Shown: positions 5,107 to 35,351, counted from the stretch's first letter. The stretch: 43,894 nt of DNA from Candidatus Cloacimonadota bacterium (GCA_027064945.1 JAMOPB010000260.1:1-43894), one strand, 5' to 3'. Made by a program: numbers and translations. Notes: generated by a model from the sequence alone, not told the origin.

Positions 5107-5111
5107 CATTA

Positions 5112-11718: not shown

Positions 11719-11734
11719 CGGAACAATTATTGCA
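11719..11734 (+). promoter_or_regulatory. Candidate sigma-54 (-24/-12) promoter of the pilin operon
   Basis: CGGAACAATTATTGCA versus consensus TGGCACG-N4-TTGCW. It has GG (11720-21) and GC (11732-33) with the exact 10-nt spacing and a full TTGCA -12 element. It lies about 50 nt upstream of the pilA ATG, and an NtrC-type activator is encoded 5 kb upstream. Confidence 0.6.
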
Positions 11735-11784
11735 AAAGTAATGGAAACTAAAAAAGTTTTTTCAAAATCAAGGAGGAAAAAGTA

Positions 11785-12216
11785 ATGTTGAAAAACTTAA
11801 AAAATCAGAAAGGGTTTAGTCTTGTTGAATTATTGGTAGTGGTAGTAATTATTGCCATATTGGCAGCTATCGCTGTTCCTATTTACATGAGTTATGTAAA
11901 GCAGGCAAGAGCAACCGAGGCACAATCAGCTATCGCAGCAATTAGAAGCGCTTATAGAATTGAGCGTCAAACTTTTGGAACTGTAGAAAACTACACAATT
12001 GAAGATGCATTAAAAGATGCAAAACTTGGTAATCGTACAGAAAAGAACTGGGAATTTGAAGTTATCGGAAACCCACCAAGAACTTACATGGCTACTTCTA
12101 CTGCCGAATTCCCGGGTGGAGAAGGAAAACAGGTGTGGTATGATGTAGAAGCTGCTGAATATCACGGTTATGGTATTGATGAAGATGAACAAGATACAGA
12201 GGAAATTATTGATTAA
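11785..12216 (+). CDS. pilA: Type IVa major pilin (prepilin with class III signal peptide)
   Basis: MLKNLKNQKG|FSLVELLVVVVIIAILAAIAVP: short basic leader, Gly-1, Phe+1, Glu+5, hydrophobic alpha1-N. Strong RBS AAGGAGG. First gene after the sigma-54 promoter candidate. Confidence 0.9.
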   Translation: MLKNLKNQKGFSLVELLVVVVIIAILAAIAVPIYMSYVKQARATEAQSAIAAIRSAYRIERQTFGTVENYTIEDALKDAKLGNRTEKNWEFEVIGNPPRTYMATSTAEFPGGEGKQVWYDVEAAEYHGYGIDEDEQDTEEIID

Positions 12217-12233
12217 TAGTTGGAGGATTTTTT

Positions 12234-13289
12234 TTGACTATACGCGAACTACTTGAATTTACGGCAGCTGCCAATGCATCTGACTTGCATATTAGTACTG
12301 GATCTACTCCAATGCTTCGTGTGCACGGTCAAATGAAAAAATTGAACCTGCCTAAATCTTCATATGAAGAAGTTAAAGGTCTAATTTATAGTACCATGAA
12401 CGAGTCACAAATTGCTCTGTTCGAGGAAAAACTGGAAATTGACTTTTCAACAAAATTGGATGATGATACTCGTTTCCGTGTAAATGCTTTTCACCAAATC
12501 AATGGTATGGGTGTGGCTTTTCGTCTTATTCCAAATGAGATTAAAAGTTTCGAAGAATTACACCTTCCTGAAATTCTTAGTCGCTTAGCGATGAAAGAAA
12601 ATGGTTTGATTTTGGTGACTGGGCCTACCGGTAGCGGTAAATCAACTACACTGGCAACAATGATTGATCATATTAATGATTCTCGTCATTGCCATATACT
12701 TACAATCGAGGACCCTATCGAATTCGTACATAAAAGTAAGAATTCTTTAATCAACCAACGTGAAATCGGGCATGATTCATGGTCATTTACTGCAGCGCTA
12801 CGTTCTGCTTTACGTGAAGACCCCGATGTAATCTTGGTTGGTGAGATGCGTGACCTTGAAACTGTAAGTTTGGCATTAACTGCTGCTGAAACCGGACACT
12901 TGGTTTTGGCAACATTGCACACAAGTAGTGCAACAAAATCTATCGATAGAATCATCGATATGTTCCCTCGTGAACAGCAAGCTCAGGTTAGATCTATGCT
13001 TTCCGAATCTTTACGTGCTGTTGTAGCTCAGAAGCTATTACCTCGTAAGGATGGAGAAGGTCGTATTCCTGCATTGGAAATTATGATAGCTAACTCTGCT
13101 GTTAAAAACCTGATTCGTGAGGAAAAAACTTATCAGATACCTTCTGTTATCCAAGCTGGAACAAAAGAAGGTATGCAATCTATTGATCAATCTTTGTATA
13201 ACCATGTAATGAATGGTCTTTTGGATCGTCGTGTTGCTGAAGAAGTGGCAGACAATCCTAAGATGTTTATAACAGGGACGGCATTTTAA
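12234..13289 (+). CDS. pilT: Type IV pilus retraction ATPase PilT
   Basis: About 350 aa with PilT-like sequence throughout. N-terminus MTIRELLEFTAAANASDLHISTGSTPMLRVHG, Walker A GPTGSGKSTT, ILTIEDPIEF, LREDPDVILVGEMRD, AAETGHLVLATLHT, and the PilT-type AIRNLIRE-like motif SAVKNLIRE. TTG start 7 nt after GGAGG. Confidence 0.95.
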   Translation: MTIRELLEFTAAANASDLHISTGSTPMLRVHGQMKKLNLPKSSYEEVKGLIYSTMNESQIALFEEKLEIDFSTKLDDDTRFRVNAFHQINGMGVAFRLIPNEIKSFEELHLPEILSRLAMKENGLILVTGPTGSGKSTTLATMIDHINDSRHCHILTIEDPIEFVHKSKNSLINQREIGHDSWSFTAALRSALREDPDVILVGEMRDLETVSLALTAAETGHLVLATLHTSSATKSIDRIIDMFPREQQAQVRSMLSESLRAVVAQKLLPRKDGEGRIPALEIMIANSAVKNLIREEKTYQIPSVIQAGTKEGMQSIDQSLYNHVMNGLLDRRVAEEVADNPKMFITGTAF

Positions 13290-13774
13290 TGTTAAAAAAT
13301 AAATTTGATTCCGAAGCTGGCTTTGGGATTATCCAAGTTTTGGCAACTCTTGTTATTGCTAGTGTTGCCATTGCTGGACTATTTGTAACAAGTTATTATG
13401 TAAGACAAAAAGCAACTGAAAATTACCATACTAGAGTGGCGATATTACATGCTACCGAAGTTTTGGAAAAGATTAGATGGTTCAACAGAAATAACGAAGG
13501 ACCTGTGGATGTTACCCATATTCCCGGTTTGGCCGGTAATGTTGTTATCGAAAATCGCGATAACCATAATCTTATGGGCATAATTCAAAATCCTCACGTT
13601 TCTTATGGACAAGTTGATCTTATGGTTGCTCCCTATTGTATATATGATGCTGTTACAGTTGAAGTTACCTGGATTGAAGGTGCTGAAGATTCTTATGGCG
13701 AAACTGATAATAAAAGACGCTCTGTAGTTTTACGAGAAGATTATTATCGTAGAGCTGATATTGGAGGTGAATAA
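13289..13774 (+). CDS. Pilin-like (minor pilin/pseudopilin) protein with a degenerate class III signal
   Basis: DSEAG|FGIIQVLATLVIASVAIAGLFV: Gly-Phe junction plus hydrophobic helix, but Gln instead of Glu at +5. TAATG overlap with pilT. Confidence 0.55.
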   Translation: MLKNKFDSEAGFGIIQVLATLVIASVAIAGLFVTSYYVRQKATENYHTRVAILHATEVLEKIRWFNRNNEGPVDVTHIPGLAGNVVIENRDNHNLMGIIQNPHVSYGQVDLMVAPYCIYDAVTVEVTWIEGAEDSYGETDNKRRSVVLREDYYRRADIGGE

Positions 13775-14412
13775 TGGTTAAGAATCAAAAAGGTGTATCC
13801 TTAGTTGAACTTATCGCTGCAATCCCTCTTACAGTTCTGGTTTTTGTCATCCTTACAATGGCTGTTTCAAGTTTTGTAACAACTTATAAGGAAACCAGGC
13901 TTTATTTGCAATTGCAAGATGAACTTTACAATATGGTAGATCTAATACGTCACGGCTATATTGATGAGGATATCGAAGCAAGCGAAGGACTAATAGGGCT
14001 GATGACTGCAAATAAAGTGGAAATTAGTGGAGGCAGAAATATCATGACATTGCGACCTGTAATAATTGCTGAAGGTTTACCTGATGCATATAAAACTACT
14101 TTCTACGCTGATAGCGATGGGAGATTACTTGTTAGTGGTCAATATGGATTGAATAGTTTCCAGGAAACTCAAATATTCCCAAGTAGCAATATGAGAATTG
14201 GGCGTGAATTACAATTTCGATTAATCGATCAAGATGTTTTCACAGTTACCAAAAGAACTACTCATGGGCCTATTATGGTTAAATTACACTTCAAAGGACA
14301 AGTTCGCTTCCGAGAAAAAGAGCTAGGACAAAATCCTCTTGAAGATAAGAAATTGAATACAAGGATTGTTGAGTATAATACATCAGTCTTTGTTGGAAAC
14401 ACAAAAGGTTAG
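13774..14412 (+). CDS. Minor pilin with a canonical prepilin N-terminal cleavage/methylation motif
   Basis: MVKNQKG|VSLVELIAAIPLTVLVFVILTMAV (Glu at +5). TAATG overlap with the preceding gene. Confidence 0.75.
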   Translation: MVKNQKGVSLVELIAAIPLTVLVFVILTMAVSSFVTTYKETRLYLQLQDELYNMVDLIRHGYIDEDIEASEGLIGLMTANKVEISGGRNIMTLRPVIIAEGLPDAYKTTFYADSDGRLLVSGQYGLNSFQETQIFPSSNMRIGRELQFRLIDQDVFTVTKRTTHGPIMVKLHFKGQVRFREKELGQNPLEDKKLNTRIVEYNTSVFVGNTKG

Positions 14413-14423
14413 AAGGAGTAAAT

Positions 14424-16832
14424 ATGTTTAAAAAAATCAAAAAGCTTCTTCTTAACAAAAATTTGGAAAATGAAAAAGGTTCTATTGCCGCAATGGTAGT
14501 CGGTATTATAATTGTTTCGATAACACTTGCATCTAGTATCTCATTAATCGAAATGGTTAATTCAGATTCATTAATATTGGAATATCAGCAAGATGCTGTT
14601 CAGGAAGAATTGCTTTTGCGATCAGAAGCAGCAAGAACGCATATGGCTGTTGAATATAATGAAATGAGACCGATTCCAAATCGAGAAGTAGAAATCATAT
14701 CCAATAGTAATGATCGTAGAACTGTTTATAAAATAGAAAACAGTAAAGAGAATATATTTGTGAATAATTATATGGGATATGCTACTAAAAAGGTAGTTTC
14801 AATAAAATCTCATATAACTGCAAGACGCGGAAGATCTTATCAATTACATGATAAATCTCCGGTAGAGAGATTGTCAGAGAAACTTATATCGCATGAATCA
14901 TTAGCAGAATTTCAATATTTTACCGATGTTGAAGCATCTGAAAATGCTGATGGTGGACAAGAAGCTGCTGCTGTGAAGTTTTATGGTAAAGATGTTCTTT
15001 ACGGTAAGGTTCATAGTAATGATGATATATGGATTCAACAAGCCGGCGGTGGTAACAATAATGGTTGGCCAACATTCTATGAAATGGTTACAACTTCAGG
15101 TAAATTTAAGAGATATCCGTCAGGAGAAGATTTGATCGGTAGTGGTGTATCGACTGATGAAATATTCGTTGGTGGCTTTGAAGAAGAAGTTCCACCGATT
15201 GTATTTTCTGCAACTATGACAGATATTAGGGATAATGCAGATAAATTTTTTGGCAATACATCCACATCCGATATCGGGTTTGTTTATCTTAACGGTGGTT
15301 CTTATCAGGGCTTAATCGGAGATAAATATTTAGTTGATATTATGGAATTTCCTGTGTACAGTTGGTATCCTTCTGATGCGGGAATGGTTCAGAATGCTAT
15401 TAATGACGGTGTGAATTGGTTTGAAGATAGTGAGTTAATATGGACAAATTCAATCGCTATTTATGATACTGTCTGGACTCCACGTTCCGGTGCTGTGAAT
15501 AATAATTCTGTCTTTGTAGATGGAAAACTTTATATTTATGGAAGGCCGGGCGGGAAACAAACATGGGGTGCTTCTGATACTGTGTTTGTAGTAAGCGACA
15601 TTGTTTATTATACAAATGAATTGGGAGATTTTCCTGACGGCTATGCAGGTTTAGACGAGGAAGGTGAACCTCAATATGATCTTGATGAAGTTAATCCAAC
15701 TGATTTCTTCGGATTAGTATCAGAAGAGGATATTTTAATTGCATATAAATATAAAAATCCTGAAACCGGAGAGATTATTGATCATAATTGCGATGGAATA
15801 TATCTTTACGGAGCTTTTGCTGCAATAGGAAAAGGTGATGAGGATATTCACGCGGAAATGGCGTGTCATCATGATGGTATATTCTCCTTTGAATATCATC
15901 ATCCAGCCGGATCAACACCAAATTTCCATAGTATAAGTCCATATTTAATGGAGACATACACGCTTAAAATGATTGATAGCTCTGCTAATGGTTGGGAGAA
16001 TGCTACAATCGACTTGTATGTAAACGGAGAACTTCGAGAAGAAGATTTAACTTGTACTGGAAGTGAAACTGATGTTGATTTTAATCTCGAACATATGGAT
16101 ATATTAGACCTTATCTACACTCCGGGCGATGCCGGACATGAGAATGAACATAGTTATCAAATTGTAGATTCAGATGGGAATATTGTAGTTGCCGAAGGTC
16201 CTAATCCGGCACAAGCAGCTAATTTTCAATGTGTTGTGACTGAGTTTTCAGATACTCTTTATACATACATCGATCTACATAAATATGTTTATCCTCCAAA
16301 TCCACTTCTGCCTGAAGAGCACCAAGGCTTTAACTTACAAAGTAATGGATTAGCCGGTGGCGGGTATCCGTATGGTTTGGTTGGATATCCTTTTGAATCA
16401 TCTTTAATCCCAACAGCATATGTGAATTCCTACCCGAATGCGGGACCAAATTTTGTTTATCCCGATGGGACAGATATTCCTTGGTATAATCCGATTTGGC
16501 CGGAACCATCTACATCTGTTGGTGAGGATGTTTTCTATTATGATGGAAGAAATGCTCGTATTTATGGAGCTATAGCACAAAGACGTCGTGGATTTATACG
16601 TCGCTCAGGTACTGACCCATATAATCATCCTAATCCGCTCGATACAGATGAAAAGCTATATCATTATGGTAGAACGCATGATCCTACAGGATATGATAAA
16701 GAATATTATTACGACAGGCGATTTTTATTTGAACAACCACCTGATTACCCCGAAATATACCGTGGTTGGGGATCAAATGATATTACATCATTTACTTCAC
16801 AAACCTGGTATTTCAAACCAATTGGTGATTAG
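14424..16832 (+). CDS. Large (802 aa) PilX_N-type pilin-like protein; candidate pilus tip or priming-complex component, function unknown
   Basis: N-terminus NLENEKG|SIAAMVVGIIIVSITLASS resembles the PilX N-terminal (ERGSxLxxALxxL) type of anchor. The rest has no motif I recognise. The C-terminal third is very rich in Tyr/Pro/Asp/Gly/Asn. It sits between the minor pilins and pilM. Confidence 0.5.
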   Translation: MFKKIKKLLLNKNLENEKGSIAAMVVGIIIVSITLASSISLIEMVNSDSLILEYQQDAVQEELLLRSEAARTHMAVEYNEMRPIPNREVEIISNSNDRRTVYKIENSKENIFVNNYMGYATKKVVSIKSHITARRGRSYQLHDKSPVERLSEKLISHESLAEFQYFTDVEASENADGGQEAAAVKFYGKDVLYGKVHSNDDIWIQQAGGGNNNGWPTFYEMVTTSGKFKRYPSGEDLIGSGVSTDEIFVGGFEEEVPPIVFSATMTDIRDNADKFFGNTSTSDIGFVYLNGGSYQGLIGDKYLVDIMEFPVYSWYPSDAGMVQNAINDGVNWFEDSELIWTNSIAIYDTVWTPRSGAVNNNSVFVDGKLYIYGRPGGKQTWGASDTVFVVSDIVYYTNELGDFPDGYAGLDEEGEPQYDLDEVNPTDFFGLVSEEDILIAYKYKNPETGEIIDHNCDGIYLYGAFAAIGKGDEDIHAEMACHHDGIFSFEYHHPAGSTPNFHSISPYLMETYTLKMIDSSANGWENATIDLYVNGELREEDLTCTGSETDVDFNLEHMDILDLIYTPGDAGHENEHSYQIVDSDGNIVVAEGPNPAQAANFQCVVTEFSDTLYTYIDLHKYVYPPNPLLPEEHQGFNLQSNGLAGGGYPYGLVGYPFESSLIPTAYVNSYPNAGPNFVYPDGTDIPWYNPIWPEPSTSVGEDVFYYDGRNARIYGAIAQRRRGFIRRSGTDPYNHPNPLDTDEKLYHYGRTHDPTGYDKEYYYDRRFLFEQPPDYPEIYRGWGSNDITSFTSQTWYFKPIGD

Positions 16833-16888: not shown

Positions 16889-17959
16889 ATGGCGAAAAAG
16901 AAAGCTAAAAAGTTTAAAGAGTCTATTGGTTTAGATATTGGTAACCATAGCATTAAATTGGTTCACCTTAAAAAAATACACCAAGGCTATAAACTTTTGA
17001 ATTATGAAGTAAGATCAACAATTCCCGAAGGACATGAATCAAGTCTTTCAGATCTTTCTTCAGATAGATTTGCGCCGATTTTATCCGGAATGCTGAAGTC
17101 GATGAAAATTAATCCAAAGAAGGTAAAACATTTAGTTTCTTCTATTGGAGGCGACGATACAAGTATCAAGCAAATTAAAACAATTTTCTTGCCGGATGAT
17201 GAATTAGAATCAGCGCTTTTCTTCGAAGCAAAAAAGCACCTTCCTATTGGCGGTGCTGAAATGCTCCTGGATTTCCAAGTTGTAAGTGTGGAAGAAAAGA
17301 CTAATAATATGAATGTATTATTGGCAGCTACCACTAAAACAATGCTTAAAGAACATACAAGAATATTATCTAATGCCGGCATGGAAGCAGGTATTGTAGA
17401 TATGGAATCTTTAGCGGTAGCTAATAGCTATTTCCTAAATAATGCTTTGGAAGATGGCGTTTATATTCTTCTAAATATTGGAGCATATAAGACTAATATG
17501 GTGATTTGTGGACCTAATGTGAAAATCTTCGCACGTGATATTGGTTACGGTGGATTCCACATCTCTAAAGATATTGCTAAGAAAAATAAAGTTTCTTTTG
17601 AAGAAGCTGAGAAAATCAAATTTGAATATGGTATAAAGGAAGTTGCCAAGAAAGCAGAAACAAGTTCTTTGCTTACATTGGATATCTCCGACAAAACCCC
17701 TGCAGAGCAAATAGCAATGGAAGTGAAACGTTCATTAAGATTTTATGTGAAAGAAGCTGGTACAAGCGATTTCCGTAAAATAGTTTTAATGGGTGGATCA
17801 GCCAAAACAATTGGTTTAGCAGAGTATATTTCAGAGCAACTCAATATTCCAACTGAAGTATTTAATCCATTTGAAAGTATCGAGACTAGCGGTAGTTTCA
17901 GTGACATAAAAGATCCGCAATATGCTGTAGCTCTGGGTCTTGCTATGCGTCCGGAATAA
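16889..17959 (+). CDS. pilM: Type IV pilus assembly protein PilM (actin-like ATPase fold)
   Basis: IGLDIGNHSIKLVHLKK N-terminal phosphate-1-like motif, about 355 aa, VLMGGSAKTIGLAEYISEQLNIPTEVFNPF near the C-terminus. Followed by pilN/O/P/Q-like genes. Confidence 0.85.
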   Translation: MAKKKAKKFKESIGLDIGNHSIKLVHLKKIHQGYKLLNYEVRSTIPEGHESSLSDLSSDRFAPILSGMLKSMKINPKKVKHLVSSIGGDDTSIKQIKTIFLPDDELESALFFEAKKHLPIGGAEMLLDFQVVSVEEKTNNMNVLLAATTKTMLKEHTRILSNAGMEAGIVDMESLAVANSYFLNNALEDGVYILLNIGAYKTNMVICGPNVKIFARDIGYGGFHISKDIAKKNKVSFEEAEKIKFEYGIKEVAKKAETSSLLTLDISDKTPAEQIAMEVKRSLRFYVKEAGTSDFRKIVLMGGSAKTIGLAEYISEQLNIPTEVFNPFESIETSGSFSDIKDPQYAVALGLAMRPE

Positions 17960-17969
17960 GGGAGTTTTT

Positions 17970-18557
17970 ATGAGTCAATTTTTTTATAAAATTAATTTAA
18001 ATAAATACGGTGAGCTTAAACAGCAAATCGAACGACAAAAGAAAGATTTTTTGAATATATCTATTACATTCTTAATAATTACAGCTGTTATGGTTGGTGG
18101 ATTATTTATGTTGAATGGAATGTTGAAACAGAAAATCCAATCGCGTCGTGAATTGCTCGCTAAGATCAAAAAAGAGATTAAATCTTATCAAGTAAGCGGA
18201 GAATATCTTTCTTCAAATGACTTAAATAGAATCGCAAAAGTAAGTTCGGAACGTATATTCTGGGCAAAAAAATTAGTAGCTCTTTCTGAAAAGACTACCG
18301 ATAAAATTGCGATAACTCATTTTGCTTATAAGAATGGTAAATTAAGCCTTTTTGGAATTACAAAATTGGACAAGAATGAGAAAGAATTTGATCTAATTGA
18401 TGAATTTATTAAGAATTTGAAATCTAATGAACATATTAGTTCTGATTTCCCAAATATTAGTTTTGTGAAGTCTTCTACTGATTATGAAAAAGATGTTGAA
18501 ATTCTTAGATTCCAGATAGATGCAACTGTAAAAGATGAGCCAAAGAGGAGGAAATAA
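17970..18557 (+). CDS. pilN: PilN-like pilus assembly protein (bitopic)
   Basis: N-terminal FYKINLNKY resembles the PilM-binding INLLP motif. It has a single TM (ITFLIITAVMVGGLFML) then a coiled coil. ATG 17970 follows GGGAG and avoids overlap with pilM, unlike the listed 17940 start. Confidence 0.65.
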   Translation: MSQFFYKINLNKYGELKQQIERQKKDFLNISITFLIITAVMVGGLFMLNGMLKQKIQSRRELLAKIKKEIKSYQVSGEYLSSNDLNRIAKVSSERIFWAKKLVALSEKTTDKIAITHFAYKNGKLSLFGITKLDKNEKEFDLIDEFIKNLKSNEHISSDFPNISFVKSSTDYEKDVEILRFQIDATVKDEPKRRK

Positions 18558-19102
18558 TGAAAAATAAATATATGATCCTTTTACTCATCATAATTGTAGT
18601 TGGAGCAGGTTTTTTCTATATTGGAAATGAAGTTATTTCTAAAAAAGTAAGAAAAATTAATGCTTACGATAAGAAAATTAAAGAAGAACAAGAAAAATTA
18701 AATAGCGCGAAAGTGTTGAATGAACAACTTTCTGAAGTTTCAAAAGTTATTTTAGCTAGTATTACCGACAAAAGAGAATATAGCCCTGAGGAGATTAATG
18801 CTTTTGTAAAAAAATTAGCTGATTTAGCTGATAAATATGAAATCACAGTAAATGCTGTAGTTCCAAAAGTTGTTAGTGGATTAAACAGACACTATGTGGA
18901 ACAGCAATATACGTTAGAAATTAACTGTACTTTTGTACAATTGGGTAAATTCTTAACCGAATTGGAAGGTTTTGATAACATTATGGAAATTAACACGTTA
19001 ACTGTTAATCCTATTCCTACGGAAAATTCATCAGAACTTACCGATACTCGCTACCGTGTATCAATTCTTCTTACTACTGTGAAGATTGTGAAGGAGGCAT
19101 AA
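18557..19102 (+). CDS. pilO: PilO-like pilus assembly protein (bitopic)
   Basis: Single N-terminal TM (YMILLLIIIVVGAGFFYIG), a coiled-coil segment, then a small alpha/beta C-domain. The call rests on position between the pilN-like and pilQ genes; TAATG coupling. Confidence 0.5.
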   Translation: MKNKYMILLLIIIVVGAGFFYIGNEVISKKVRKINAYDKKIKEEQEKLNSAKVLNEQLSEVSKVILASITDKREYSPEEINAFVKKLADLADKYEITVNAVVPKVVSGLNRHYVEQQYTLEINCTFVQLGKFLTELEGFDNIMEINTLTVNPIPTENSSELTDTRYRVSILLTTVKIVKEA

Positions 19103-24370: not shown

Positions 24371-24397
24371 GGATTTATTAAATTATAAGGAAAATTT

Positions 24398-25673: not shown

Positions 25674-25704
25674 TCAGGGGTTTAAAAGCGAATTTTAAAC
25701 CCCT
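25674..25704 (+). other. Intra-operon hairpin between pilC and pilD (13-bp stem)
   Basis: CAGGGGTTTAAAA-GCGAA-TTTTAAACCCCTG, followed by CTTCTTAAAT with no clean U-tract. Confidence 0.55.
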
Positions 25705-25733
25705 GCTTCTTAAATATAAATCGGAGAATTTTA

Positions 25734-26531: not shown

Positions 26532-29500
26532 ATGAAAAGAATTGTTTATGTTTTATTTATATTATTTTCTTTTGCATTTTTATATGCTCAAAATGTGGAA
26601 GATTTTGAATCTGGCGGATTTGGCAATAATCCTTGGACTTTTGGAGGTGTTGCAGATTGGATAATCTCAAGTTCAGAAACTCATAGTGGTAGCTATAGTG
26701 CTCAAGCTGGAGATATTAGTGATAGCCAAATGAGTAGCTTGTCTATTACTCTTGATATAACTGATGCCAGTCAAATATCATTTTGGTGGAAAACTAGTAG
26801 TGAAAATAACTATGACTGGCTGAGATTTTATATTGATGATATGCAAATTGCTGAGCTATGCGGAGAAACCGGCTGGGAAGAAGTTACAAATAATGTTATT
26901 GTGGGTAACCATACTTTCAAATGGCAATATGAAAAAGATAGTAGTGTGAGTTCTGGCCAAGATACAGGTTGGATAGATGATATTACCTTTCCTACAACAT
27001 TTATCTATGATGATGATATGGCGTGTTCATCTATTGCAGGTCCTGCCTTTACCAATGTTGGTTCAATAGCAGTTTATGATATTACTGTAAAAAATGCCGG
27101 TTATAACACAGTGAATTCTTATGATGTCGTATTGTATAATGGTAATGATGAAATTGAAACAATTTCTATTAATCAGGCATTAGCTTTTGAAGAAACAAGA
27201 GTTCATTCTATTCCTTGGAATGTTCCGGCTTCCGAAGAAGATAACACTGTGATGATTAGTGCCGGAGTTGTTCTTAATAACGATGAAAATAATGCGAATG
27301 ATTTCAGTAGCGCTATTCCAACTCATGTTTTCCCTCCGGGAATTATTGAGATTCAAGTAGGAAATGGTACTACAGGAGACAATAAAACTCCTACAAGTTT
27401 TTCTTATGCAAATTCAATGACTGAAATGTTATATTTTTCCGATGAAATTGCTATGGAAGAAGGAACTATGACAAGTCTTGAATTCCAATACAATTTTTCT
27501 GATGGTATTTCTGATGAGAATATACAAATTTGGTTAGGAGAAACTACTCAAGAAAATTTATCTACGGGATTTATCTTTGCTGATGAATTACAATTGGTTT
27601 ATGATGGAACTCCTTATTTTGTTGGAGATTCTCAAAATAACTGGGTAAATATTGAATTTGATGAATCTTATGAATATAGTGGTGGAAATTTGGTTATGTT
27701 AGTATATAATCCATTTACTTCATCACATACAGGAACTTTTAATTTTATTCACGATGAATCTTCTGTATCTGAGCATGAAGATAGAACAAGATATAATCGA
27801 GATAATGTAGAAGAATATGATCCTTATGATCCTGAATCGATTCTTGAAAGCTATACTTATGAATATTATCCAAATGTTAAATTCAATTTCTACACAGGTC
27901 CGAAAGGAATTTTAGAAGGGTATGTTTATGATCAGGATGGAACTCCGGTAGGTGGAGTGGAAATTACATCAGATGATGTTAGTGCAATTGTCATATCAGA
28001 GCCAAACGGACACTATTATTTTCCTGATATTGCTGTTGGTGAACATGATTTCACTGCAAACAAATATGGATATGATTCCGATACTCATAGTGTTGAAATT
28101 ATCCAAGATGAAACTACTGAATTAGATTTCACAATTTCAGAATGGAATACTATATCTGTTTCCGGAACTGTATATACTTCTGATGATCTTGATACTCCTT
28201 TGGCAGGTGCTGTGGTAACTCTCTCAGGAGGAACAGAATATCAATATACTACTCATCAATCAGGAACTTTCAATTTTAATAATGTTTATACAAATGCAAT
28301 TTATCAGCTAACTATTACTTATGAAGGATATCAAGATTATACATCGGAAGTTGAAGTGGAAGATGAAGATATTGATTTAGGTGATTTGGTTGTTGTAGAA
28401 CCTACAGTACCTCCAAGTAATGTTACTGCAACTCAAAACGAGGATGAATCTATTGCTACAATATCTTGGAATTCACCCGGAGTTGGTGGATCTGTGTTTA
28501 GATATGATGATGGCGAACCGGTTACCTCTGTTGGATTAAATACCAATAATGGCGTGTTGGGTGCTTTGCATCAATACAATAGTGTTTTGAACGAAATTAG
28601 TTGGTTTCTTACAGATAGTCATAATCATAGCTCTGTGAAATTACTGATTTTTGGATTAAATGAAGATGGCATGCCCGATCAATCTAATATTTTATACAAT
28701 TCAGGAACTATTCTCAATACCGATAATCAATGGAATACACACATTATTCCGGAGCCAATTGCAGCTCCAGGCGGGTTTTTTGTAGGTATATGTGCTAACG
28801 GTACTTATACTGATATCGCTTTAGATGATGGAGTAGGCGCTCCATATGAATATCAAGATGGCACTCATTTTGCCATTCAGAATTATACTGATTCTTCAGA
28901 TACATGGTTTGCTATGGAAGAATATAATGTGAGAAAAAATATGTTGCTAAGGGTTACAGGAGCAAATTATGGTGCACCTGTTCCAAGACGTGATATCACT
29001 CACTTAAATAGATCTTTTGAAGGTTATAATATTTATCGTTTGGAAGCTGGCGATGAAAATTATCCTGATGATTGGGTTTTGGTTACAGAGGCTATTACAG
29101 ATACAACCTATGCTGATGAAACTTGGCAATCAGTTGAGGAAGGATATTATAAATATGCTGTTAAAAGCAGATATACAAATAACTTTGAATCTTTTGCCAT
29201 ATTCTCGGGAATTCTAAATAAAACTTTTTCATCTGCAGAAGGAAATGAACTAACCTTACAAAATGTGACTAATTATCCAAATCCATTTGGTAATTCAGCT
29301 GATAGTAGATCTTGCGGAACCAATATTAGCTTTAGTTTAGCTTCTGCAAAAAAACTAAATGTGAGGATTTATAATTCTAAAGGACAATTGGTGAGAAATT
29401 TAATTGAAGATAAATTTGAAGCTGGTAAACATAATGTTTATTGGGACGGTAAGGATAACAACTTGAAGCAAGTTACTTCGGGTGTTTATTTATACAAAAT

Positions 29501-29549
29501 CCGGAGTTCGAATTTTATCATTTCAAAAAAGATGTTACTAATAAAATAA
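26532..29549 (+). CDS. Large secreted multidomain protein (jelly-roll/MAM-like module, CARDB-like, carboxypeptidase-regulatory-like, FN3-like) with T9SS-type CTD
   Basis: Signal peptide FAFLYA|QN. N-terminal module EDFESGGFGNNPWTFGG...ISFWWKTSSENNYDWLRFYIDD...GNHTFKWQYEKDSSVSSGQDTGWIDDITFP. GILEGYVYDQDGTPVGGVEITS (CarboxypepD_reg-like). Tail NYPNPFG...VRIYNSKGQLV...VTSGVYLYKI...KKMLLIK. The ATG lies 9 nt after the pilD stop, with a GGGAGG RBS. Confidence 0.75.
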   Translation: MKRIVYVLFILFSFAFLYAQNVEDFESGGFGNNPWTFGGVADWIISSSETHSGSYSAQAGDISDSQMSSLSITLDITDASQISFWWKTSSENNYDWLRFYIDDMQIAELCGETGWEEVTNNVIVGNHTFKWQYEKDSSVSSGQDTGWIDDITFPTTFIYDDDMACSSIAGPAFTNVGSIAVYDITVKNAGYNTVNSYDVVLYNGNDEIETISINQALAFEETRVHSIPWNVPASEEDNTVMISAGVVLNNDENNANDFSSAIPTHVFPPGIIEIQVGNGTTGDNKTPTSFSYANSMTEMLYFSDEIAMEEGTMTSLEFQYNFSDGISDENIQIWLGETTQENLSTGFIFADELQLVYDGTPYFVGDSQNNWVNIEFDESYEYSGGNLVMLVYNPFTSSHTGTFNFIHDESSVSEHEDRTRYNRDNVEEYDPYDPESILESYTYEYYPNVKFNFYTGPKGILEGYVYDQDGTPVGGVEITSDDVSAIVISEPNGHYYFPDIAVGEHDFTANKYGYDSDTHSVEIIQDETTELDFTISEWNTISVSGTVYTSDDLDTPLAGAVVTLSGGTEYQYTTHQSGTFNFNNVYTNAIYQLTITYEGYQDYTSEVEVEDEDIDLGDLVVVEPTVPPSNVTATQNEDESIATISWNSPGVGGSVFRYDDGEPVTSVGLNTNNGVLGALHQYNSVLNEISWFLTDSHNHSSVKLLIFGLNEDGMPDQSNILYNSGTILNTDNQWNTHIIPEPIAAPGGFFVGICANGTYTDIALDDGVGAPYEYQDGTHFAIQNYTDSSDTWFAMEEYNVRKNMLLRVTGANYGAPVPRRDITHLNRSFEGYNIYRLEAGDENYPDDWVLVTEAITDTTYADETWQSVEEGYYKYAVKSRYTNNFESFAIFSGILNKTFSSAEGNELTLQNVTNYPNPFGNSADSRSCGTNISFSLASAKKLNVRIYNSKGQLVRNLIEDKFEAGKHNVYWDGKDNNLKQVTSGVYLYKIRSSNFIISKKMLLIK

Positions 29550-29558: not shown

Positions 29559-29975
29559 ATGAAACTCGTCAAACTAACATTTTTTCTAGGCTTAGTAGTT
29601 ATAGCCATTTTTGGTTGTGATGATCGTTCATTGGAAATTAAGGAAAACATTATTGAAAATGTTTATGTGGAAAATGATACGGTTGAAATTGTTACAGGCA
29701 ATACACAGAACGGTTCGGAAATTATTGTTACCATTATTGATGAAGATGGTTCTCATCCTTTAGGAGAAAATGTTCGTTTTAAAACAGATCTCGGTGGTCT
29801 AATGAGAATTGGCACGAAAGAAAGAACCGAAACTCAAATAGATGATCAAACTGATGAAAATGGGATAGCTAAAGTATATTTTTATGAAAAAGATGTACCT
29901 GGTTTGGCTGAGATAGAGATATCTGTGTTTGGAGATAAAAAAACTGTTCAGGTTATGATAATAGACCCTGAATAA
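29559..29975 (+). CDS. Small Ig-like (Big_1-type) lipoprotein, short paralog of the 21070..22620 lipoprotein
   Basis: Lipobox AIFG|CDDRS, the same CDDRS start as the 516-aa protein. IIVTIIDEDGSHPLGENVRFKTDLGG...DENGIAKVYF parallels VRAILQDDDGFAVTNTKVIFKSDLGS...DSSGVAKVKF. Confidence 0.6.
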   Translation: MKLVKLTFFLGLVVIAIFGCDDRSLEIKENIIENVYVENDTVEIVTGNTQNGSEIIVTIIDEDGSHPLGENVRFKTDLGGLMRIGTKERTETQIDDQTDENGIAKVYFYEKDVPGLAEIEISVFGDKKTVQVMIIDPE

Positions 29976-29995: not shown

Positions 29996-32900
29996 ATGAA
30001 AAGAAAATTATTGTTATTATTTTTGTTAATCACAATTTCGCTTTTTGCAGAATGGGTAGATGTAAATGAATCAAGTGAATTGTTCGAGGCAAACAGCACA
30101 CGTTCGTTAGATACCACAACCATAAGTTTTATGCTTGATGGTTATAATTTAGAATCAGTAGAAGAAAACGGAATAGAATTTTCTAAAATTTCCCATGAAA
30201 ATGAAGGAAGAATTATTCAAGAAGGAATGCCTGATTTACCAAGATTTACCAGATTAGTTGCTATACCTGATCAAGGTGAAATCTCATATAAAATCTTAAA
30301 TTCAAATTCTGAAACAGTACAAGATATTAATGTGTATCCAAGACAAGCTTTAATTGCTGAAAATGGAGATTATGATCGTAGCTTTAAAATAAATAATAAA
30401 TATTATAAATCAGGAGATATTTTCCCTTCTAATCAAGTTGAAGTAGGAACTCCTGCTATTATGCGTGACCATAGAATTGTAGCTGTAACTATAAATCCTT
30501 TCCGCTATAATCCACAATCAAAAGAATTAGAAATAATCACAGATATTTCTGTGGAAATAAATGTGAACGGAAGAGGTGGTGAAAATAGTATCACTTCTCA
30601 TCGTAAACCATCACGTTCTTTCCAAAATTTATACAAATCTTCTATCTTGAATTATGATGCAATAAAACTTAACAGAGATGCTGAATATCAGATACCATCT
30701 TACTTGTTTATTTATCCGAATAATTCAGATCTTGAAGAATATTTAACTCAATTGGTTGAATGGAAACATCAAAAAGGTTTTGAAGTTCATACTTTAAATA
30801 CATCTGAGACTGGAAATTCAAATACAGCAATCAAAGCTTATATTCAAGATGCTTATGACAATTGGGAAAATCCACCTGAATATATCTGTTTAATTGGTGA
30901 TGCAGAAGGAACTTTTAACATTCCTTATTGGTCAGAAAGTTGGTCAGGATATAGTGGCGGTGGTGATCATCATTACACACAATTAGAAGGCGATGATATT
31001 TTAGCAGATGCGTCTATAGGAAGAATTTCAATTTCCAGTTTAATGGAATTTCAAACAATTATTAACAAGATTTTCTATTATGAGAAAACTCCTTATACCG
31101 ATAGCAATTGGTTTGAAAAAGCAGTTTTAGTAGGAGATCCATCTCATTCAGGGCAAACTACAATTGATGTAAACCAAGAAATTGGTGATATGATTCTAAA
31201 TTATAATAGCAATTTCGAATTAGATGAGACCTATTCAGGTAACTGGGCTAATGGCATTATATCAGGCGTAAATAATGGTGCTTCATATCTTAACTATCGT
31301 GGCTATATTGGCATGAGTGGATTTGACGTATCTGATATTGCAAATTTGAATAATGGACCTCAACTTCCTTATGCAATTATTTTAACTTGTGCTACAGGAA
31401 CATATTATGCAGGAACATCTCGTACTGAAGCTTTCTTACGCGTGGGTACACCTTCAAATCCGAAAGGTGCAATCGGTTCAATTGGTGTTGCAACCAGTGG
31501 TACTCATACATGTTTCAATAATTCAGTAACTTATGGTATTTATCATGGTGTATTCAATGATGATATATTTAGAATGGGCGATGCGCTTTTACGTGGTAAA
31601 CTAAATTTGTATGAAGCTTATCCTGATAATCCGGAAAACAAAGTTGATATTTTCTCATATTGGATAAATCTGATGGGAGATCCGGGACTTGATTTATGGA
31701 CAAGAAATCCTGAAAACATGCAGGTAGAATATAATTCTAATATTGCGGTTGGAACAAATTATTTGGAAGTAAATGTAACAGATGAAAATGGATTGGCTAT
31801 AGAAGATGCTTGGGTAAGTGCTGTTATGGGAGAAGATGAAATCTTCCAAACTGCATATACTGATGAAAACGGTAATGTATTATTGGAAATAAATGCAGAT
31901 ACTGAAGGCGAAATAATTCTTACAGTAACAAAACCAAATTATATTGCTCATTCAGGAACTATAAATGTTAGTACTGAAACATCTTTTGTAAATGTTAATA
32001 GTTTCAGTGTCGATGATTCAAACGGTAATAACGATGGTTATGCAAATCCGGGTGAAACTTTCGATATAGAGCTAACTTTAGAAAATCTTGGTTCAACAAG
32101 CGAATCTGATGTTGTTGTGGAAGTAAGTTCTGAAAATGAATATCTTACAATAAATTCTACAGAAGTAGATTTCGGGAATATCCCGGCCGGAGGAACAGCT
32201 ACAGCAATAGTAAATGCTTCCTTAGCTGCTAATACTCCTGTAAATTATGATATTGAAGTAGATTTTGATATCGCAGGAAACTGGACAGATATGATACTTT
32301 TACCTGTTACGGGTATAAATATTATATTTAACTCAATATATACAGATTTTGAAGTTGGCCAAATAACATCATTTCCTATTGTTTTAGAAAATATAGGAAC
32401 AATTGATGCCGAATCTATTGAAGCAACATTAGAATCAGCAAATGATTTTATCAATGTGACCGATAACTCAGGTTTTTATAACTTAATATTAGCAGGCGAT
32501 ACAGCTTCAAATGCTTCAAATACTTATACTGTGCAGGTAAATAACATTGTTCTTCCCGGTACGCAACATGAAATGATTTTACATCTGGAAAATGCTGAAG
32601 GTTTCCAACAAGATGTGAATTTCTTTATAGAAGTTGGTGAAGTTTCAGTAACTGATCCGCTTGGTCCGGACGCCGGTGGATATGTTTGCTATGATATGAA
32701 TGATATAAATTACTATCAAGCTCCGGAGTATGATTGGATAGAAATAAATGATATCGGAACGGAAATAAATGTTTCAGACAATGGAAATCAAGGAGCAATT
32801 TCTGTAATCGATCTTCCATTTACATTCACTTTCTATGGGGAAGAATATAATCAGATAACTGTTTGTACAAACGGTTGGATAACTCCGGGAGTAACCGAAA

Positions 32901-35299
32901 GTAGAAACTATATGAACTGGCCAATTCCGGGTCCAGGTGGTCCATCACCTATGATAGCACCATTCTGGGATGATTTGATGTCTTCCGGCGGTGGTTTGTA
33001 TTATTATTATGATTCAAGTAATAATTATTTTGTTGTTGAATGGGATAATTATAAAAACCAATACCAGCAATCTTCATCAGAAACTTTCCAAGTTATTTTA
33101 TATGATGAAATGGCATATCCTACAGTAAGCGGCAATAGTAATTTTAAATTCCAATATAAAGAATTTAATAACGTGGATGCCGGTAGTTATGGTGGTGGAG
33201 TTTCTCATGGAGCTTATGCTACAATAGGTATTGAATCTCTTGATGGAAACACAGGTATTGGATATTCATATTATAATCAATATCCTACTGCTGCAATGCC
33301 ACTTAGTAACGAGACAGCTATCTTCTTCACTGAATCGCCTGTTATGCTTGAGCAACCATATTTAGTGATCTCAGAGGTTAATTTAGCAAATGATACCAAC
33401 ATCTTAAGTGAAAATGAGAATGTAGAATTTGATGTTTTATTAAGCAATCTGGGAGAAAATCAGGCAACAGGTGTTTCTGCTGAACTTATCTCAAACGATC
33501 CATATATTACTATCAATAATGGTGAATCTGATTATAATGATATTTCTAATTCAATCTTAGCTGTAAATAATACTCCATTTGAAATTACAGTTGGTGACAA
33601 TGTTCCAGATAACTATTCTGCTAGTTTTACACTTGTAGTAGAAACTGATTTAAATACATTTGAGCTACATTTTTCATTAGCAATTGGAAAGCCTGATATT
33701 CAATATAAATCAATCGCAATTTATGATGAAGATAATGGAATGTTAGATCCCGGTGAAACAGCCGATATAGTTGTTTCTTTTGAAAATATTGGATTAATTC
33801 CACTTGAAAATTCCATTATTGAATTAAGTGAAAATGATGCAAATCTAACGATAAACAATTCTGTTTTTGAAGCAGGAACAATTCCCGGTTTATCAATTGT
33901 TACCGGAATTTTTAATGTAACAGTTTCAGAAAATGCACCTATAGGTTTGGCTATTCCTGTGGTTGCAAATATTTCCGGTGCTGATGATTATAATAATGAA
34001 TGTGAATTTTCTGTAGTTATCGGTTTAATGGTAGAAAGCTTTGAATCAGGTGATTTCAATAGCTTCGATTGGCAGTTTACCGGTTCAGCAAATTGGAATA
34101 TATCAAATGAAGCTTCTGATGGTGAGTATTCTGCACATAGTGGAACAATTACTGATAATCAGCAAACAGGTATGGAACTTGCCTTAAATATTCCTAATAA
34201 CGGATCAATTACATTTGATTATAAAGTTTCTTCAGAAGGTAATTATGATTTCTTAAGATTTTATATTGATGGATCAGAACAAGATAGTTGGAGTGGAAAC
34301 CAAAATTGGGAAACAGTAACTTATGATGTAAATGCCGGAAATAGAACTTTTAAATGGGAATATACAAAAGATGGAAGTGTATCTTCAAATTCCGATTGTG
34401 CTTGGGTTGATAATATTATTTTCCCAGGTGGAAGTAGCGTTGCAGATATTGCATTTATCCAAGGAAATATTGAATTAGAAACAGGTGATGCTGATGTTGC
34501 TGATGTTACATTGCAATTTGGCGAAAATGTTGCTCATCCAAATGAAGACGGTTCGTTTAATATGCCTGTTATTCCTAGCATCAATAACCTTGTGATAACT
34601 TTAGATGGTTATCTTTCTCAAACAATAGAAAATATAGAGTTAGAAGCAGGAGATATCTATTCTGAAGATTTTACTCTAGTGGAAATTTCAACTTTAGGTG
34701 TGCCTACTAATCTCACAGTTACTGTTCAAGGAAGTTCTGCTATCTTGAATTGGAATGCACCCGCTAGCAGAAATTTTGATATTGGAATTGATGAAAAAAC
34801 AGGTGAAGTAATTACGGTTACAAGAAACCTAATCGGTTATAGAATTTATCGCGATGGATATGCTGTGATTGATGTAGCATCTTCAGAAACGTCATATACA
34901 GATCAAGGTTTGCCCGGTGGTGTATATGAATATTATGTTACTGCTCTTTACAGCGAAGGTGAATCATTACCATCAAATATTGTAACTACAGAGCAATCTG
35001 ATGCTGATGATTATATTCCAATGGTAACAGCATTAAATGGAAACTATCCGAATCCATTTAATCCTACTACAACCATTAGTTTTGATTTGGCAAACTCAAG
35101 TGATGTGAAATTAGAAGTTTATAATATCAAAGGTCAAAAAATTGTAACTTTGGTTAATGATAATTATATTGCAGGCAAACATTCAGTTACTTGGAATGGT
35201 AAAGATGCTTCTAATAGAAATGTTGCTTCAGGAGTTTATTTCTATAAAATGTCCACTAATGATTATGCCGAAATTAAGAAAATGATGCTCTTAAAATAG
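29996..35299 (+). CDS. Giant C25 (gingipain-like) family protein with CARDB-like repeats, a NIDO-like domain, jelly-roll module, FN3 and T9SS-type CTD (paralog 2)
   Basis: Signal peptide LFA|EW. C25 propeptide-like and catalytic-domain blocks (YICLIGDAEGTFNIPYW, GDDILADASIGRISI, PYAIILTCATGTY). Central FTFTFYGEEYNQITVCTNGWI...MIAPFWDDL block. Tail NYPNPFNPTTTISFDL...VYNIKGQKI...SGVYFYKM...KKMMLLK. Confidence 0.85.
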   Translation: MKRKLLLLFLLITISLFAEWVDVNESSELFEANSTRSLDTTTISFMLDGYNLESVEENGIEFSKISHENEGRIIQEGMPDLPRFTRLVAIPDQGEISYKILNSNSETVQDINVYPRQALIAENGDYDRSFKINNKYYKSGDIFPSNQVEVGTPAIMRDHRIVAVTINPFRYNPQSKELEIITDISVEINVNGRGGENSITSHRKPSRSFQNLYKSSILNYDAIKLNRDAEYQIPSYLFIYPNNSDLEEYLTQLVEWKHQKGFEVHTLNTSETGNSNTAIKAYIQDAYDNWENPPEYICLIGDAEGTFNIPYWSESWSGYSGGGDHHYTQLEGDDILADASIGRISISSLMEFQTIINKIFYYEKTPYTDSNWFEKAVLVGDPSHSGQTTIDVNQEIGDMILNYNSNFELDETYSGNWANGIISGVNNGASYLNYRGYIGMSGFDVSDIANLNNGPQLPYAIILTCATGTYYAGTSRTEAFLRVGTPSNPKGAIGSIGVATSGTHTCFNNSVTYGIYHGVFNDDIFRMGDALLRGKLNLYEAYPDNPENKVDIFSYWINLMGDPGLDLWTRNPENMQVEYNSNIAVGTNYLEVNVTDENGLAIEDAWVSAVMGEDEIFQTAYTDENGNVLLEINADTEGEIILTVTKPNYIAHSGTINVSTETSFVNVNSFSVDDSNGNNDGYANPGETFDIELTLENLGSTSESDVVVEVSSENEYLTINSTEVDFGNIPAGGTATAIVNASLAANTPVNYDIEVDFDIAGNWTDMILLPVTGINIIFNSIYTDFEVGQITSFPIVLENIGTIDAESIEATLESANDFINVTDNSGFYNLILAGDTASNASNTYTVQVNNIVLPGTQHEMILHLENAEGFQQDVNFFIEVGEVSVTDPLGPDAGGYVCYDMNDINYYQAPEYDWIEINDIGTEINVSDNGNQGAISVIDLPFTFTFYGEEYNQITVCTNGWITPGVTESRNYMNWPIPGPGGPSPMIAPFWDDLMSSGGGLYYYYDSSNNYFVVEWDNYKNQYQQSSSETFQVILYDEMAYPTVSGNSNFKFQYKEFNNVDAGSYGGGVSHGAYATIGIESLDGNTGIGYSYYNQYPTAAMPLSNETAIFFTESPVMLEQPYLVISEVNLANDTNILSENENVEFDVLLSNLGENQATGVSAELISNDPYITINNGESDYNDISNSILAVNNTPFEITVGDNVPDNYSASFTLVVETDLNTFELHFSLAIGKPDIQYKSIAIYDEDNGMLDPGETADIVVSFENIGLIPLENSIIELSENDANLTINNSVFEAGTIPGLSIVTGIFNVTVSENAPIGLAIPVVANISGADDYNNECEFSVVIGLMVESFESGDFNSFDWQFTGSANWNISNEASDGEYSAHSGTITDNQQTGMELALNIPNNGSITFDYKVSSEGNYDFLRFYIDGSEQDSWSGNQNWETVTYDVNAGNRTFKWEYTKDGSVSSNSDCAWVDNIIFPGGSSVADIAFIQGNIELETGDADVADVTLQFGENVAHPNEDGSFNMPVIPSINNLVITLDGYLSQTIENIELEAGDIYSEDFTLVEISTLGVPTNLTVTVQGSSAILNWNAPASRNFDIGIDEKTGEVITVTRNLIGYRIYRDGYAVIDVASSETSYTDQGLPGGVYEYYVTALYSEGESLPSNIVTTEQSDADDYIPMVTALNGNYPNPFNPTTTISFDLANSSDVKLEVYNIKGQKIVTLVNDNYIAGKHSVTWNGKDASNRNVASGVYFYKMSTNDYAEIKKMMLLK
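35006..35198 (+). repeat. CTD-coding segment nearly identical at nucleotide level to 43702..43894
   Basis: By-eye alignment: about 10 mismatches over the first 150 nt or so (GATGATTATATTCC...GATGATAATTAT). Protein identity is much lower over most of the two paralogs. Confidence 0.8.
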
Positions 35300-35315
35300 C
35301 ATTGTAATAGATATC

Positions 35316-35351
35316 AAAGGTGCTCTATCATTTGCGATAGAGCACCTTTTT
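35316..35351 (+). terminator. Strong rho-independent terminator ending the long pilus/CTD-protein string
   Basis: AAAGGTGCTCTATC-ATTTGC-GATAGAGCACCTTT: a 14-bp stem followed by TT(A)TT. Confidence 0.85.

Follow-up and report, generated by a model that had tools for sequence, protein, structure and literature searches.

The 43,894-nucleotide stretch of DNA analyzed here, from a Candidatus Cloacimonadota bacterium (GCA_027064945.1 JAMOPB010000260.1:1-43894; G+C content of 32%) and hereafter called the window, contained a complete type IVa pilus locus followed by genes for surface proteins that carry a type IX secretion system (T9SS)-type C-terminal domain (CTD). It is rather likely that the first of these proteins, an all-beta surface protein of 1005 amino acids (aa) designated CTD1005 (26532-29549, + strand), is a pilus-linked surface protein within the pilus regulon. 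The type IV pilus and the type IX secretion route are commonly viewed as separate envelope machines, and a literature search found no description of a linkage between pilus genes and CTD proteins; the type IV pilus (T4P) genes of Cloacimonadota were reported as inventory only. What is new here is that one family of CTD-tailed, non-enzymatic proteins is repeatedly linked to the pilus locus, genetically and probably also in its regulation. Members of the Cloacimonadota are abundant in digesters and anoxic sediments as uncultured degraders and syntrophs, and a pilus-linked CTD family provides a testable hypothesis for the attachment of their cells to particles or partners.

CTD1005 orthologs were located beside the T4P locus in 15 species-level genomes and occupied two positions. 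Related loci were collected with a PilB query (26 loci) and through a PilM alignment (80 loci), and are designated by L-numbers; the paired labels L008/L083, L033/L087, L028/L092, and L014/L119 each stand for one species-level genome. The close relatives in PilB and PilM were all Candidatus Cloacimonadota metagenome-assembled genomes (MAGs), and an identical copy of the window PilD sequence was present on an NCBI MAG contig (GCA_053986275.1). PilD itself was unsuited as a query for relatives because its low-complexity peptide patterns retrieved distant, unrelated lineages only. Protein families were assigned by Pfam and NCBIfam profiles, with bit scores compared to the family cut-off, and transcript architecture and regulation were read from the sequence throughout. 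Seven of the CTD1005 orthologs were placed after pilD (the window, L008/L083, L072, L011, L033/L087, L029, and L028/L092), and the other eight were co-oriented with pilA and immediately preceded it (L088, L089, L096, L107, L108, L114, L115, and L136, with Ca. Tenebribacter among them). The upstream copies showed 37-43% identity and were of full or near-full length, except for the one in L115, which is truncated by its contig end. Phylogenetic analysis of PilM placed the two arrangements on different branches, which indicates that the linkage to the pilus has survived at least one relocation. The initial annotation had put forward the succession of pilD and a CTD gene for comparison with related genomes; pilD followed by CTD1005 was seen in seven genomes including the window, in one part of the phylum only and not universally there.

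The upstream copies also carried signs of shared regulation with pilA. Seven of the eight had a TGGAAT-N5-TTGCA element at a distance of 43-58 nt upstream of their ATG, the eighth (L115) being cut by the contig end, and a sigma-54 motif also preceded a C25/CTD gene that occupied the same slot in L117. In the window, a predicted sigma-54-type promoter with the sequence CGGAACAATTATTGCA was located at 11719-11734 (+ strand), 66 nt before the pilA ATG; it contains the -24 GG and -12 GC elements, reads CGGAAC-N5-TTGCA, and has the canonical GG-N10-GC spacing. This element was retained in the window and four related genomes despite diverged flanking intergenic DNA. Counting the window, 27 of 54 loci contained the motif YGGHAY-N5-TTGCW (H = A, C, or T) 47-81 nt upstream of pilA, and the motif was approximately fivefold over-represented in 1.27 Mb of Cloacimonadota pilus loci (63 matches vs. 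12.5 ± 3 in shuffled sequences). Forty-eight of these matches were on the pilus strand, where 26 preceded pilA and eight preceded CTD genes. No other strict sigma-54 motif was found on the + strand of the window, and a search found none ahead of the gene for a 1222-aa protein upstream of the promoter, ahead of the one at 38635, or in the gaps that separate pilD from the CTD genes. The spacing, conservation, and over-representation of the element, together with a nearby, conserved gene for an enhancer-binding protein, agree with the promoter candidate that had been proposed at 11719. The retention of CTD1005 beside the pilus locus in two positions and the sigma-54 motifs on its upstream copies therefore provide evidence for membership of the family in the same predicted sigma-54 regulon as pilA.

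CTD1005 has a Sec signal, two CarboxypepD_reg domains, and a FlgD_ig/Por_Secre_tail C-terminus that scored 29.8 bits on TIGR04183 (cut-off of 23). Across the 13 full-length members of the family, column identity averaged 52% and many residues were invariant; the CTD was present in 12 of the 13. Its modules are all of the beta-sandwich type, namely an N-terminal MAM/"choice-of-anchor"-like domain that is common to many C25 proteins, CARDB, CarboxypepD_reg, fn3, and the CTD. No catalytic domain was detected in Pfam or PDB profile searches, and PDB yielded only CarboxypepD_reg and FlgD-type domains.

In the proposed mechanism, a PilS/PilR-like pair (3340-5106 and 5103-6473) would drive the sigma-54 promoter at 11719-11734, and transcription would proceed from there through pilA, pilT, the pilin-like genes, pilMNOPQ, a tandem immunoglobulin (Ig) lipoprotein gene, pilB, and pilC. 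Hairpins after pilB and pilC would probably attenuate transcription or stabilize 3' ends, and pilD and the tail genes would be expressed at a lower level by read-through. CTD1005 would then act as a Sec-exported, non-enzymatic cell-surface adhesin that crosses the outer membrane by the CTD route and works jointly with the retractile pilus when cells attach to particles or to partner cells. The pair assigned to this role consists of a PAS sensor histidine kinase in the PilS position (3340-5106, + strand; PAS, HisKA, and HATPase_c), which was retained in L077-L080, and a sigma-54-dependent response regulator in the role of PilR (5103-6473, + strand; Response_reg, Sigma54_activat with E = 4e-66, and HTH_8) with matches of the NtrC/AtoC class.

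Several observations weigh against a role of CTD1005 in the pilus regulon. In L011, L033, L029, and L028, CTD1005 was located 187-509 nt from pilD, behind a hairpin-rich gap that lacked a sigma-54 motif, so that co-regulation does not hold throughout. No CTD1005 was present at either end of the locus in at least six pilD-bearing genomes (L084, L097, L104, L116, L031, and L014/L119), and in L014 the slot after pilD (8568-10805) was occupied by a papain-type CTD protein (Peptidase_C1, a lectin-like domain, fn3, and the CTD). Distant CTD1005 homologs were located away from pilus genes. The enrichment of CTD genes in the flanks, where they made up 19 of 75 open reading frames (ORFs) in the pilD-bearing group and 4 of 105 in the pilD-less group, favors the link but may be overstated relative to the genome-wide density of CTD genes. 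The AlphaFold2 (AF2) model of the 1005-aa protein was poor (pLDDT of 59, too low for a fold search), and a hidden activity is possible.

These observations bring a neutral explanation to the fore, according to which numerous CTD proteins accumulate at the variable edges of the cluster and the adjacency is inherited synteny with no functional or regulatory tie. This explanation is unlikely. It accords with a phylum-wide cluster that stops at pilC and a tail that occurs in part of the phylum, with the variable content of the post-pilD slot (in L014 the papain-type CTD protein, and in L031, L088, L104, and L116 genes for proteins without a CTD), and with the abundance of C25/CTD paralogs, in which dozens of families share the same N-terminal domain. 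The occurrence of the same orthologous family at either end of the locus on several branches is not expected from such drift, nor is a sigma-54 motif, otherwise rare, on seven of the eight copies upstream of pilA. Furthermore, 15 of 24 loci in the pilD-bearing group had a co-oriented CTD gene as the neighbor of pilA, compared with none of 25 in the pilD-less group. If the link turned out to be regulatory or positional only, it would still provide a useful annotation of the Cloacimonadota pilus regulon.

A stronger claim than the favored interpretation would be that CTD1005 is a dedicated T4P partner in a large part of Cloacimonadota, delivered to the surface by the CTD route, switched on together with pilA by the same activator, and needed for pilus-mediated attachment or for pilus function. 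In its extreme version, there is no classical T9SS in the phylum, and it is the pilus secretin or PilD that the CTD proteins require. This is unlikely on the present evidence; if true, it would mean that a surface protein of the T9SS type is coupled to a type IV pilus in an obligatory, functional way.

A third explanation is that of the initial annotation, in which the pilus genes and active surface proteases are fused into a single 17-gene sigma-54 operon that forms an attach-and-digest module. The architecture on which it was built was confirmed. Seventeen co-directional ORFs, in which genes for two CTD proteins and a small lipoprotein succeed the full type IVa pilus set, were found on the + strand at 11785-35299, with four TAATG stop/start overlaps (13289, 13774, 18557, and 19102) and a widest intergenic gap of 82 nt. 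The gaps between pilD and the 1005-aa gene, the 1005-aa gene and the following 138-aa gene, and the latter and a 1767-aa gene were 9, 9, and 20 nt, respectively, and a GGAGG-type ribosome-binding site preceded each start. The string begins with one conserved promoter and ends with a canonical intrinsic terminator (35316-35349, + strand; 14-bp stem, -26 kcal/mol, and a UUUUUAUUAU tail, i.e., a U-run). Short gaps, overlaps, the single direction, and the absence of a second strict sigma-54 motif on the + strand thus all favor one transcript.

On the other hand, the terminator at 35316, which the initial annotation had called the first strong one, is not the first strong hairpin of the string: two stable hairpins occupy its two largest gaps. 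The hairpin between pilB and pilC (24346-24371, + strand) has an 11-bp stem (-16.5 kcal/mol, z = -4.4) and was also detected, with a different sequence, in L008 and L072, i.e., only in the closest relatives of the window. The hairpin between pilC and pilD (25675-25705, + strand) has a 13-bp stem (-21.9 kcal/mol, z = -3.7) and leaves approximately 28 nt to the pilD start. Folding of 10 pilD-bearing loci revealed a hairpin in this position in each of them (the window, L008, L072, L009, L011, L014, L028, L029, L031, and L033), with energies of -13 to -25 kcal/mol and differing sequences, and it was followed by U6 tracts in L011, L014, L029, and L033, and it resembles a canonical terminator in several relatives. 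The hairpin after pilC looks like a former end of the pilus operon that would now serve as a leaky terminator or attenuator, or as a 3'-end stabilizer; in the window, both internal hairpins lack a good U-tract and their effect is uncertain, which also weighs against the favored interpretation. The single-operon claim was weakened by the recurrence of the post-pilC hairpin and by the phylum-wide cluster ending at pilC, and also by the distance of the CTD gene from pilD in the four relatives named above.

The conservation of the locus points in the same direction. A block of pilA, pilT, pilin-like genes, pilMNOPQ, a lipoprotein gene, pilB, and pilC was retained phylum-wide (26 PilB loci and 80 PilM loci), whereas pilD followed pilC in one part of the phylum only; in pilD-less genomes, the cluster stopped at pilC and the downstream genes were unrelated. 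The pilD-bearing loci grouped together in a PilB tree, and the pilD-less loci formed a nested clade in a midpoint-rooted PilM tree. The 17-gene order was not conserved in most relatives. The full tail (the 1005-, 138-, and 1767-aa genes) and the upstream block (the regulators and the 1222-aa C25 gene) were common only to the closest relatives (L008/L078, L072/L077, L079, and L080), which makes the 17-gene string as such a local trait. Genes for the 138-aa and 1767-aa proteins were confined to the window and its closest relatives L008 and L072, and most relatives lack them; they are presumed recent additions. Support for the proposed co-regulated module concerns the pilus and at least CTD1005, which are linked through 15 genomes and the sigma-54 motifs.

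The "digest" half of the model was not borne out. The C25-like CTD protein of 1767 aa (29996-35299, + strand) contains Propeptide_C25, Peptidase_C25 (E = 3e-53), NIDO, fn3, many Ig-like modules, and a Por_Secre_tail (TIGR04183, 39.3 vs. 23). A paralog of which 1753 aa were covered (38635-43894, + strand; Peptidase_C25 with E = 1e-53; TIGR04183, 27.0) was 50% identical to it and runs off the window. Comparison to RgpB of Porphyromonas gingivalis, which was matched by C25 proteins of the window with E-values of 2e-22 and 2e-17, revealed that the NYTGH(211) of RgpB is replaced by NYRGY in both proteins, beside a five-residue deletion, so that Tyr occupies the position of the catalytic His, while Cys244 is kept. 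The same position was occupied by Tyr in the L072 homolog (13470-16787) and by Trp in the L008 homolog (17389-18768), whereas the His and Cys dyad was kept in 148 of 153 C25 homologs, including the 1222-aa protein. The 1767-aa protein is probably a pseudo-peptidase with a binding or structural role, or an adhesin, rather than a protease. Since it is the only C25 protein of the string and lacks the catalytic His, and CTD1005 has no recognizable enzyme domain, the tail contains no predicted active protease; the only window protein that keeps the dyad belongs to a separately terminated unit at 7543-11211. Taken together, the hairpins, the restricted tail genes, and the missing active site make the full operon model improbable.

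It is very improbable that the pilus-like machine is itself the export route, whether like a type II secretion system (T2SS) or like a type IVb (T4b) pilus with TcpF/CofJ, and that the CTD only anchors the proteins or the phylum has no T9SS. In favor of this explanation, PilB and PilQ score nearly equally on T4P and T2SS models, pilD is most tightly joined to a CTD gene (the 9-nt gap), and the Cloacimonadota literature found shows CTDs but no demonstrated T9SS core genes, a T9SS being deduced there from CTDs. Against it, PilT, PilM_2, and a canonical major pilin identify a retractile type IVa pilus, the CTDs pass TIGR04183 and carry a type-A pattern, a review (PMC11285876) lists Cloacimonadota among the phyla where T9SS may be present, and no positive evidence for pilus-dependent export was found.

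The remaining window proteins of the C25 family and the nature of the tails were as follows. The 1222-aa C25 cysteine peptidase with a type-A CTD (7543-11211, + strand) contains Propeptide_C25, Peptidase_C25 (8e-67), and Peptidase_C25_C, and scored 29.0 on TIGR04183 (cut-off of 23). Its HRDHGY and TINCET motifs align to His211 and Cys244 of RgpB. The gene forms a separate unit with its own intrinsic terminator (11237-11265, + strand; 13-pair stem, -19.9 kcal/mol, then UUUUG), and its orthologs (approximately 1230 aa) were located elsewhere in varied contexts, in neighborhoods without T9SS or pilus genes. An identity as the T9SS sortase PorU was rejected for the 1222-aa protein, which scored 130 bits on the PorU model (cut-off of 420) and 27 bits with PDB 6ZA2, and is closer to RgpB; this outcome speaks neither for a T9SS nor against one. 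The profile matches support the earlier statement that C25/CTD paralogs flank the string at 7543-11211 and from 38635 to the end. Pfam Por_Secre_tail was above its cut-off only in the 1767-aa protein, and all four CTD proteins passed TIGR04183; their pattern PNPF...GVY.Y...KKMLLxK is that of the usual type-A T9SS signal, and the tails described as T9SS-type are genuine type-A CTD-like domains. The giant C25-like proteins in which His is replaced by Tyr or Trp and Cys is kept form a clade of predicted pseudo-gingipains.

The pilus genes themselves, all on the + strand, correspond to a type IVa system: a class III pilin signal (Gly-1, Phe+1, and Glu+5) with a prepilin peptidase, PilB/PilT/PilC, and PilMNOP with PilQ. 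The major pilin PilA (11785-12216; N_methyl, TIGR02532) has the leader MLKNLKNQKG/FSLVE, in which the slash marks the cleavage position, and is followed by the retraction ATPase PilT (12234-13289; TIGR01420, 482 bits vs. a cut-off of 319). Three pilin-like genes come next. A minor pilin-like protein of 161 aa (g161, 13289-13774) has the N-terminus ...EAG/FGIIQVLATLVIASVAIAG (AG/FGIIQ), lacks Glu5, and was retained in relatives; a minor pilin of 212 aa (g212, 13774-14412) begins with MVKNQKG/VSLVE and is conserved; and a pilin-like protein of 802 aa (g802, 14424-16832) has the N-terminus ...NEKG/SIAAMVVGIIIV (KG/SIAAM) and also lacks Glu5. The assembly genes are pilM (16889-17959; PilM_2, E = 2e-49), pilN (17970-18557; 195 aa, with a weak PilN match of 17.5 bits under the cut-off and a conserved position), pilO (18557-19102; PilO, 22.3 bits vs. 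a cut-off of 22), a gene for a membrane-anchored PilP/GspC-like protein of 181 aa (19102-19647; an N-terminal transmembrane helix, a weak GspC match at residues 94-175, and a conserved position), and pilQ for a secretin of 463 aa (19665-21056; Secretin with E = 3e-37, STN, and Secretin_N). The proteins in the PilN and PilP positions were assigned by weak matches, membrane topology, and conserved position. For pilN, gene calling (195 aa) favored the ATG at 17970 over a TTG at 17940, and for pilQ the start at 19665 (463 aa) is more likely than the previously reported 19641. The assembly ATPase PilB (22630-24336; T2SSE with E = 4e-128 and MshEN) scored 599 on TIGR02538 (cut-off of 676). It is followed by the platform protein PilC (24398-25651; two T2SSF domains, E = 3e-60) and, after pilC in part of the phylum only, by the prepilin peptidase PilD (25734-26522; A24_N_bact and Peptidase_A24). 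The view that one locus encodes a complete type IVa gene set is thus backed by Pfam and NCBIfam matches and, for the weak ones, by position. The predicted machine is an ordinary retractile type IVa pilus under PilR-type sigma-54 control.

The 802-aa pilin-like protein was retained phylum-wide with 27-63% identity, and searches of PDB, Pfam, and NCBIfam returned no match; it is a candidate tip pilin or adhesin. Residues ~184-500 of this protein showed 28% identity to a CTD-tailed protein that adjoins pilC in two pilD-less genomes (L021 13063-15867 and L022 13062-15869, both on the - strand). A pilin and a CTD protein may thus serve as alternative carriers for the display of one binding module. 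The N-terminal 60 residues of PilB contained an MshE-type motif for binding of cyclic di-GMP (NF053729, 58 bits vs. a cut-off of 38), which hints at control of pilus assembly by cyclic di-GMP.

Two lipoproteins of the locus are related to each other. The tandem-Ig lipoprotein of 516 aa between pilQ and pilB (21070-22620, + strand; lipobox VFSGC/DDRS) belongs to a family (Big_1/Invasin_D3) that was seen only in Cloacimonadota. In all 24 loci that span the pilQ-pilB interval (among L008-L033 and L060), exactly one lipoprotein gene of 516-1572 aa was present, and the mature N-terminus Cys-Asp-(Asp/Lys/Asn)-Arg was invariant. An AF2 model (pLDDT of 81) showed an invasin-like rod of approximately five Ig-like domains; a fold search yielded generic tandem-Ig matches and no pilus-specific fold. 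This lipoprotein may be a phylum-specific pilus component. The 138-aa lipoprotein (29559-29975, + strand; lipobox IFGC/DDRS) is a paralog of its first Ig domain (30% identity, E = 2e-7), and the two share the lipobox and the mature sequence Cys-Asp-Asp-Arg-Ser.

Single-locus type IVa pili with a sigma-54/PilR-controlled pilA are represented by the pil genes of Myxococcus xanthus, pilSR-pilA of Pseudomonas aeruginosa, and the system of Geobacter. As in these bacteria, the window combines a PilA with a G/F...E5 signal, PilB, PilT, PilC, PilD, PilMNOPQ, and minor pilins in one locus, and a kinase and a sigma-54 response regulator are encoded near a -24/-12 promoter before pilA. It differs from them in the phylum-only tandem-Ig lipoprotein between pilQ and pilB, the 802-aa pilin-like protein and the lack of a recognizable PilY1, the membrane-anchored GspC-like protein in the PilP position and the MshE-type PilB, and the CTD surface-protein genes that are appended to the locus or, in relatives, precede it. 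Type IVb operons encode a secreted partner, namely tcpF in Vibrio cholerae and cofJ in enterotoxigenic Escherichia coli, that is exported by the pilus machine. The window resembles these operons in that the gene for an exported protein other than a pilin lies inside or beside the pilus operon and would be expressed with it; however, its pilus is of type IVa with PilT, and its partner has a T9SS-type tail, whereas tcpF and cofJ belong to type IVb pili and their products have no CTD.

Comparison to RgpB (PDB 1CVR and 4IEF) revealed a Sec signal and a C-terminal beta-sandwich of approximately 80 aa that passes TIGR04183; in addition, three of the window's four CTD proteins are homologous to the propeptide and the catalytic domain of C25. 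In contrast to RgpB, the host is not a member of Bacteroidota and its T9SS is a prediction from CTD tails, the two proteins of the 1750-aa class have Tyr in place of the catalytic His and the 1005-aa protein has no enzyme domain, and the CTD genes are linked to, and apparently co-regulated with, a T4P locus. The nearest case in the papers retrieved was that of Fibrobacter succinogenes. In this bacterium, which like Cloacimonadota belongs to the FCB (Fibrobacteres-Chlorobi-Bacteroidetes) superphylum, type IV pilins and surface proteins with T9SS signals are both implicated in adhesion to cellulose (PMC6851124). This association of pilins and T9SS-signal proteins is functional and proteomic, and unlike in the window, no common locus or sigma-54 promoter is described for it. 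Besides the pilus linkage, the window raises the phylum-only pilus-locus lipoprotein, the pseudo-gingipain clade, and the question of whether CTDs outside Bacteroidota use T9SS.

Other features of the window include a tetratricopeptide repeat (TPR) protein of 527 aa (1662-3245, + strand) with matches to Pfam TPR families and weak PilW/Tgl matches under the cut-off; it occupied the same position in L078-L080 and is a possible pilotin-like factor. The PilR-like gene is followed by two single-domain response regulators, one on the + strand (6494-6853; Response_reg, E = 1e-30) and one on the - strand (6885-7262; Response_reg, E = 4e-22), of which the latter was retained in L077-L080. A perfect palindrome, CGTTATAAATATAACG (11654-11669; CGTTATA-AA-TATAACG), was read from the sequence at a distance of approximately 59 nt on the upstream side of the -24 GG that precedes pilA; L079 and L080 retained it in part, and the sigma-54 activator may bind there. 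Downstream of the string's terminator and ahead of the next C25-like gene, the window encodes a pair of a solute-binding protein (SBP_bac_11) and a PAS histidine kinase (35550-38505), which may form a second sensory input near the surface-protein genes.

Further observations were made on the related loci. The papain-type CTD protein of L014 had only its C-terminal ~180 residues in common with CTD1005, which suggests a cassette-like replacement of the N-terminal part. The pilD-to-CTD gaps of L011 (6779-6974), L033 (10994-11180), and L029 (3652-4160) contained GC-rich hairpin repeats (e.g., CTTCTCCGGCAGTTGCCGGAGAAG) in AT-rich genomes; these look like elements of the REP (repetitive extragenic palindromic) or MITE (miniature inverted-repeat transposable element) type. 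Additional sigma-54-type motifs were located just downstream of pilD, before non-CTD genes, in L088 (19782, before a response-regulator-like gene) and L094 (20166), and in the surroundings of the pilus locus, sigma-54 control may reach beyond pilA and CTD1005. Most pilD-less loci (L113 and L123-L161) contained a conserved divergent gene of ~670-715 aa next to pilA on the - strand, located 120-760 nt upstream in most of them.

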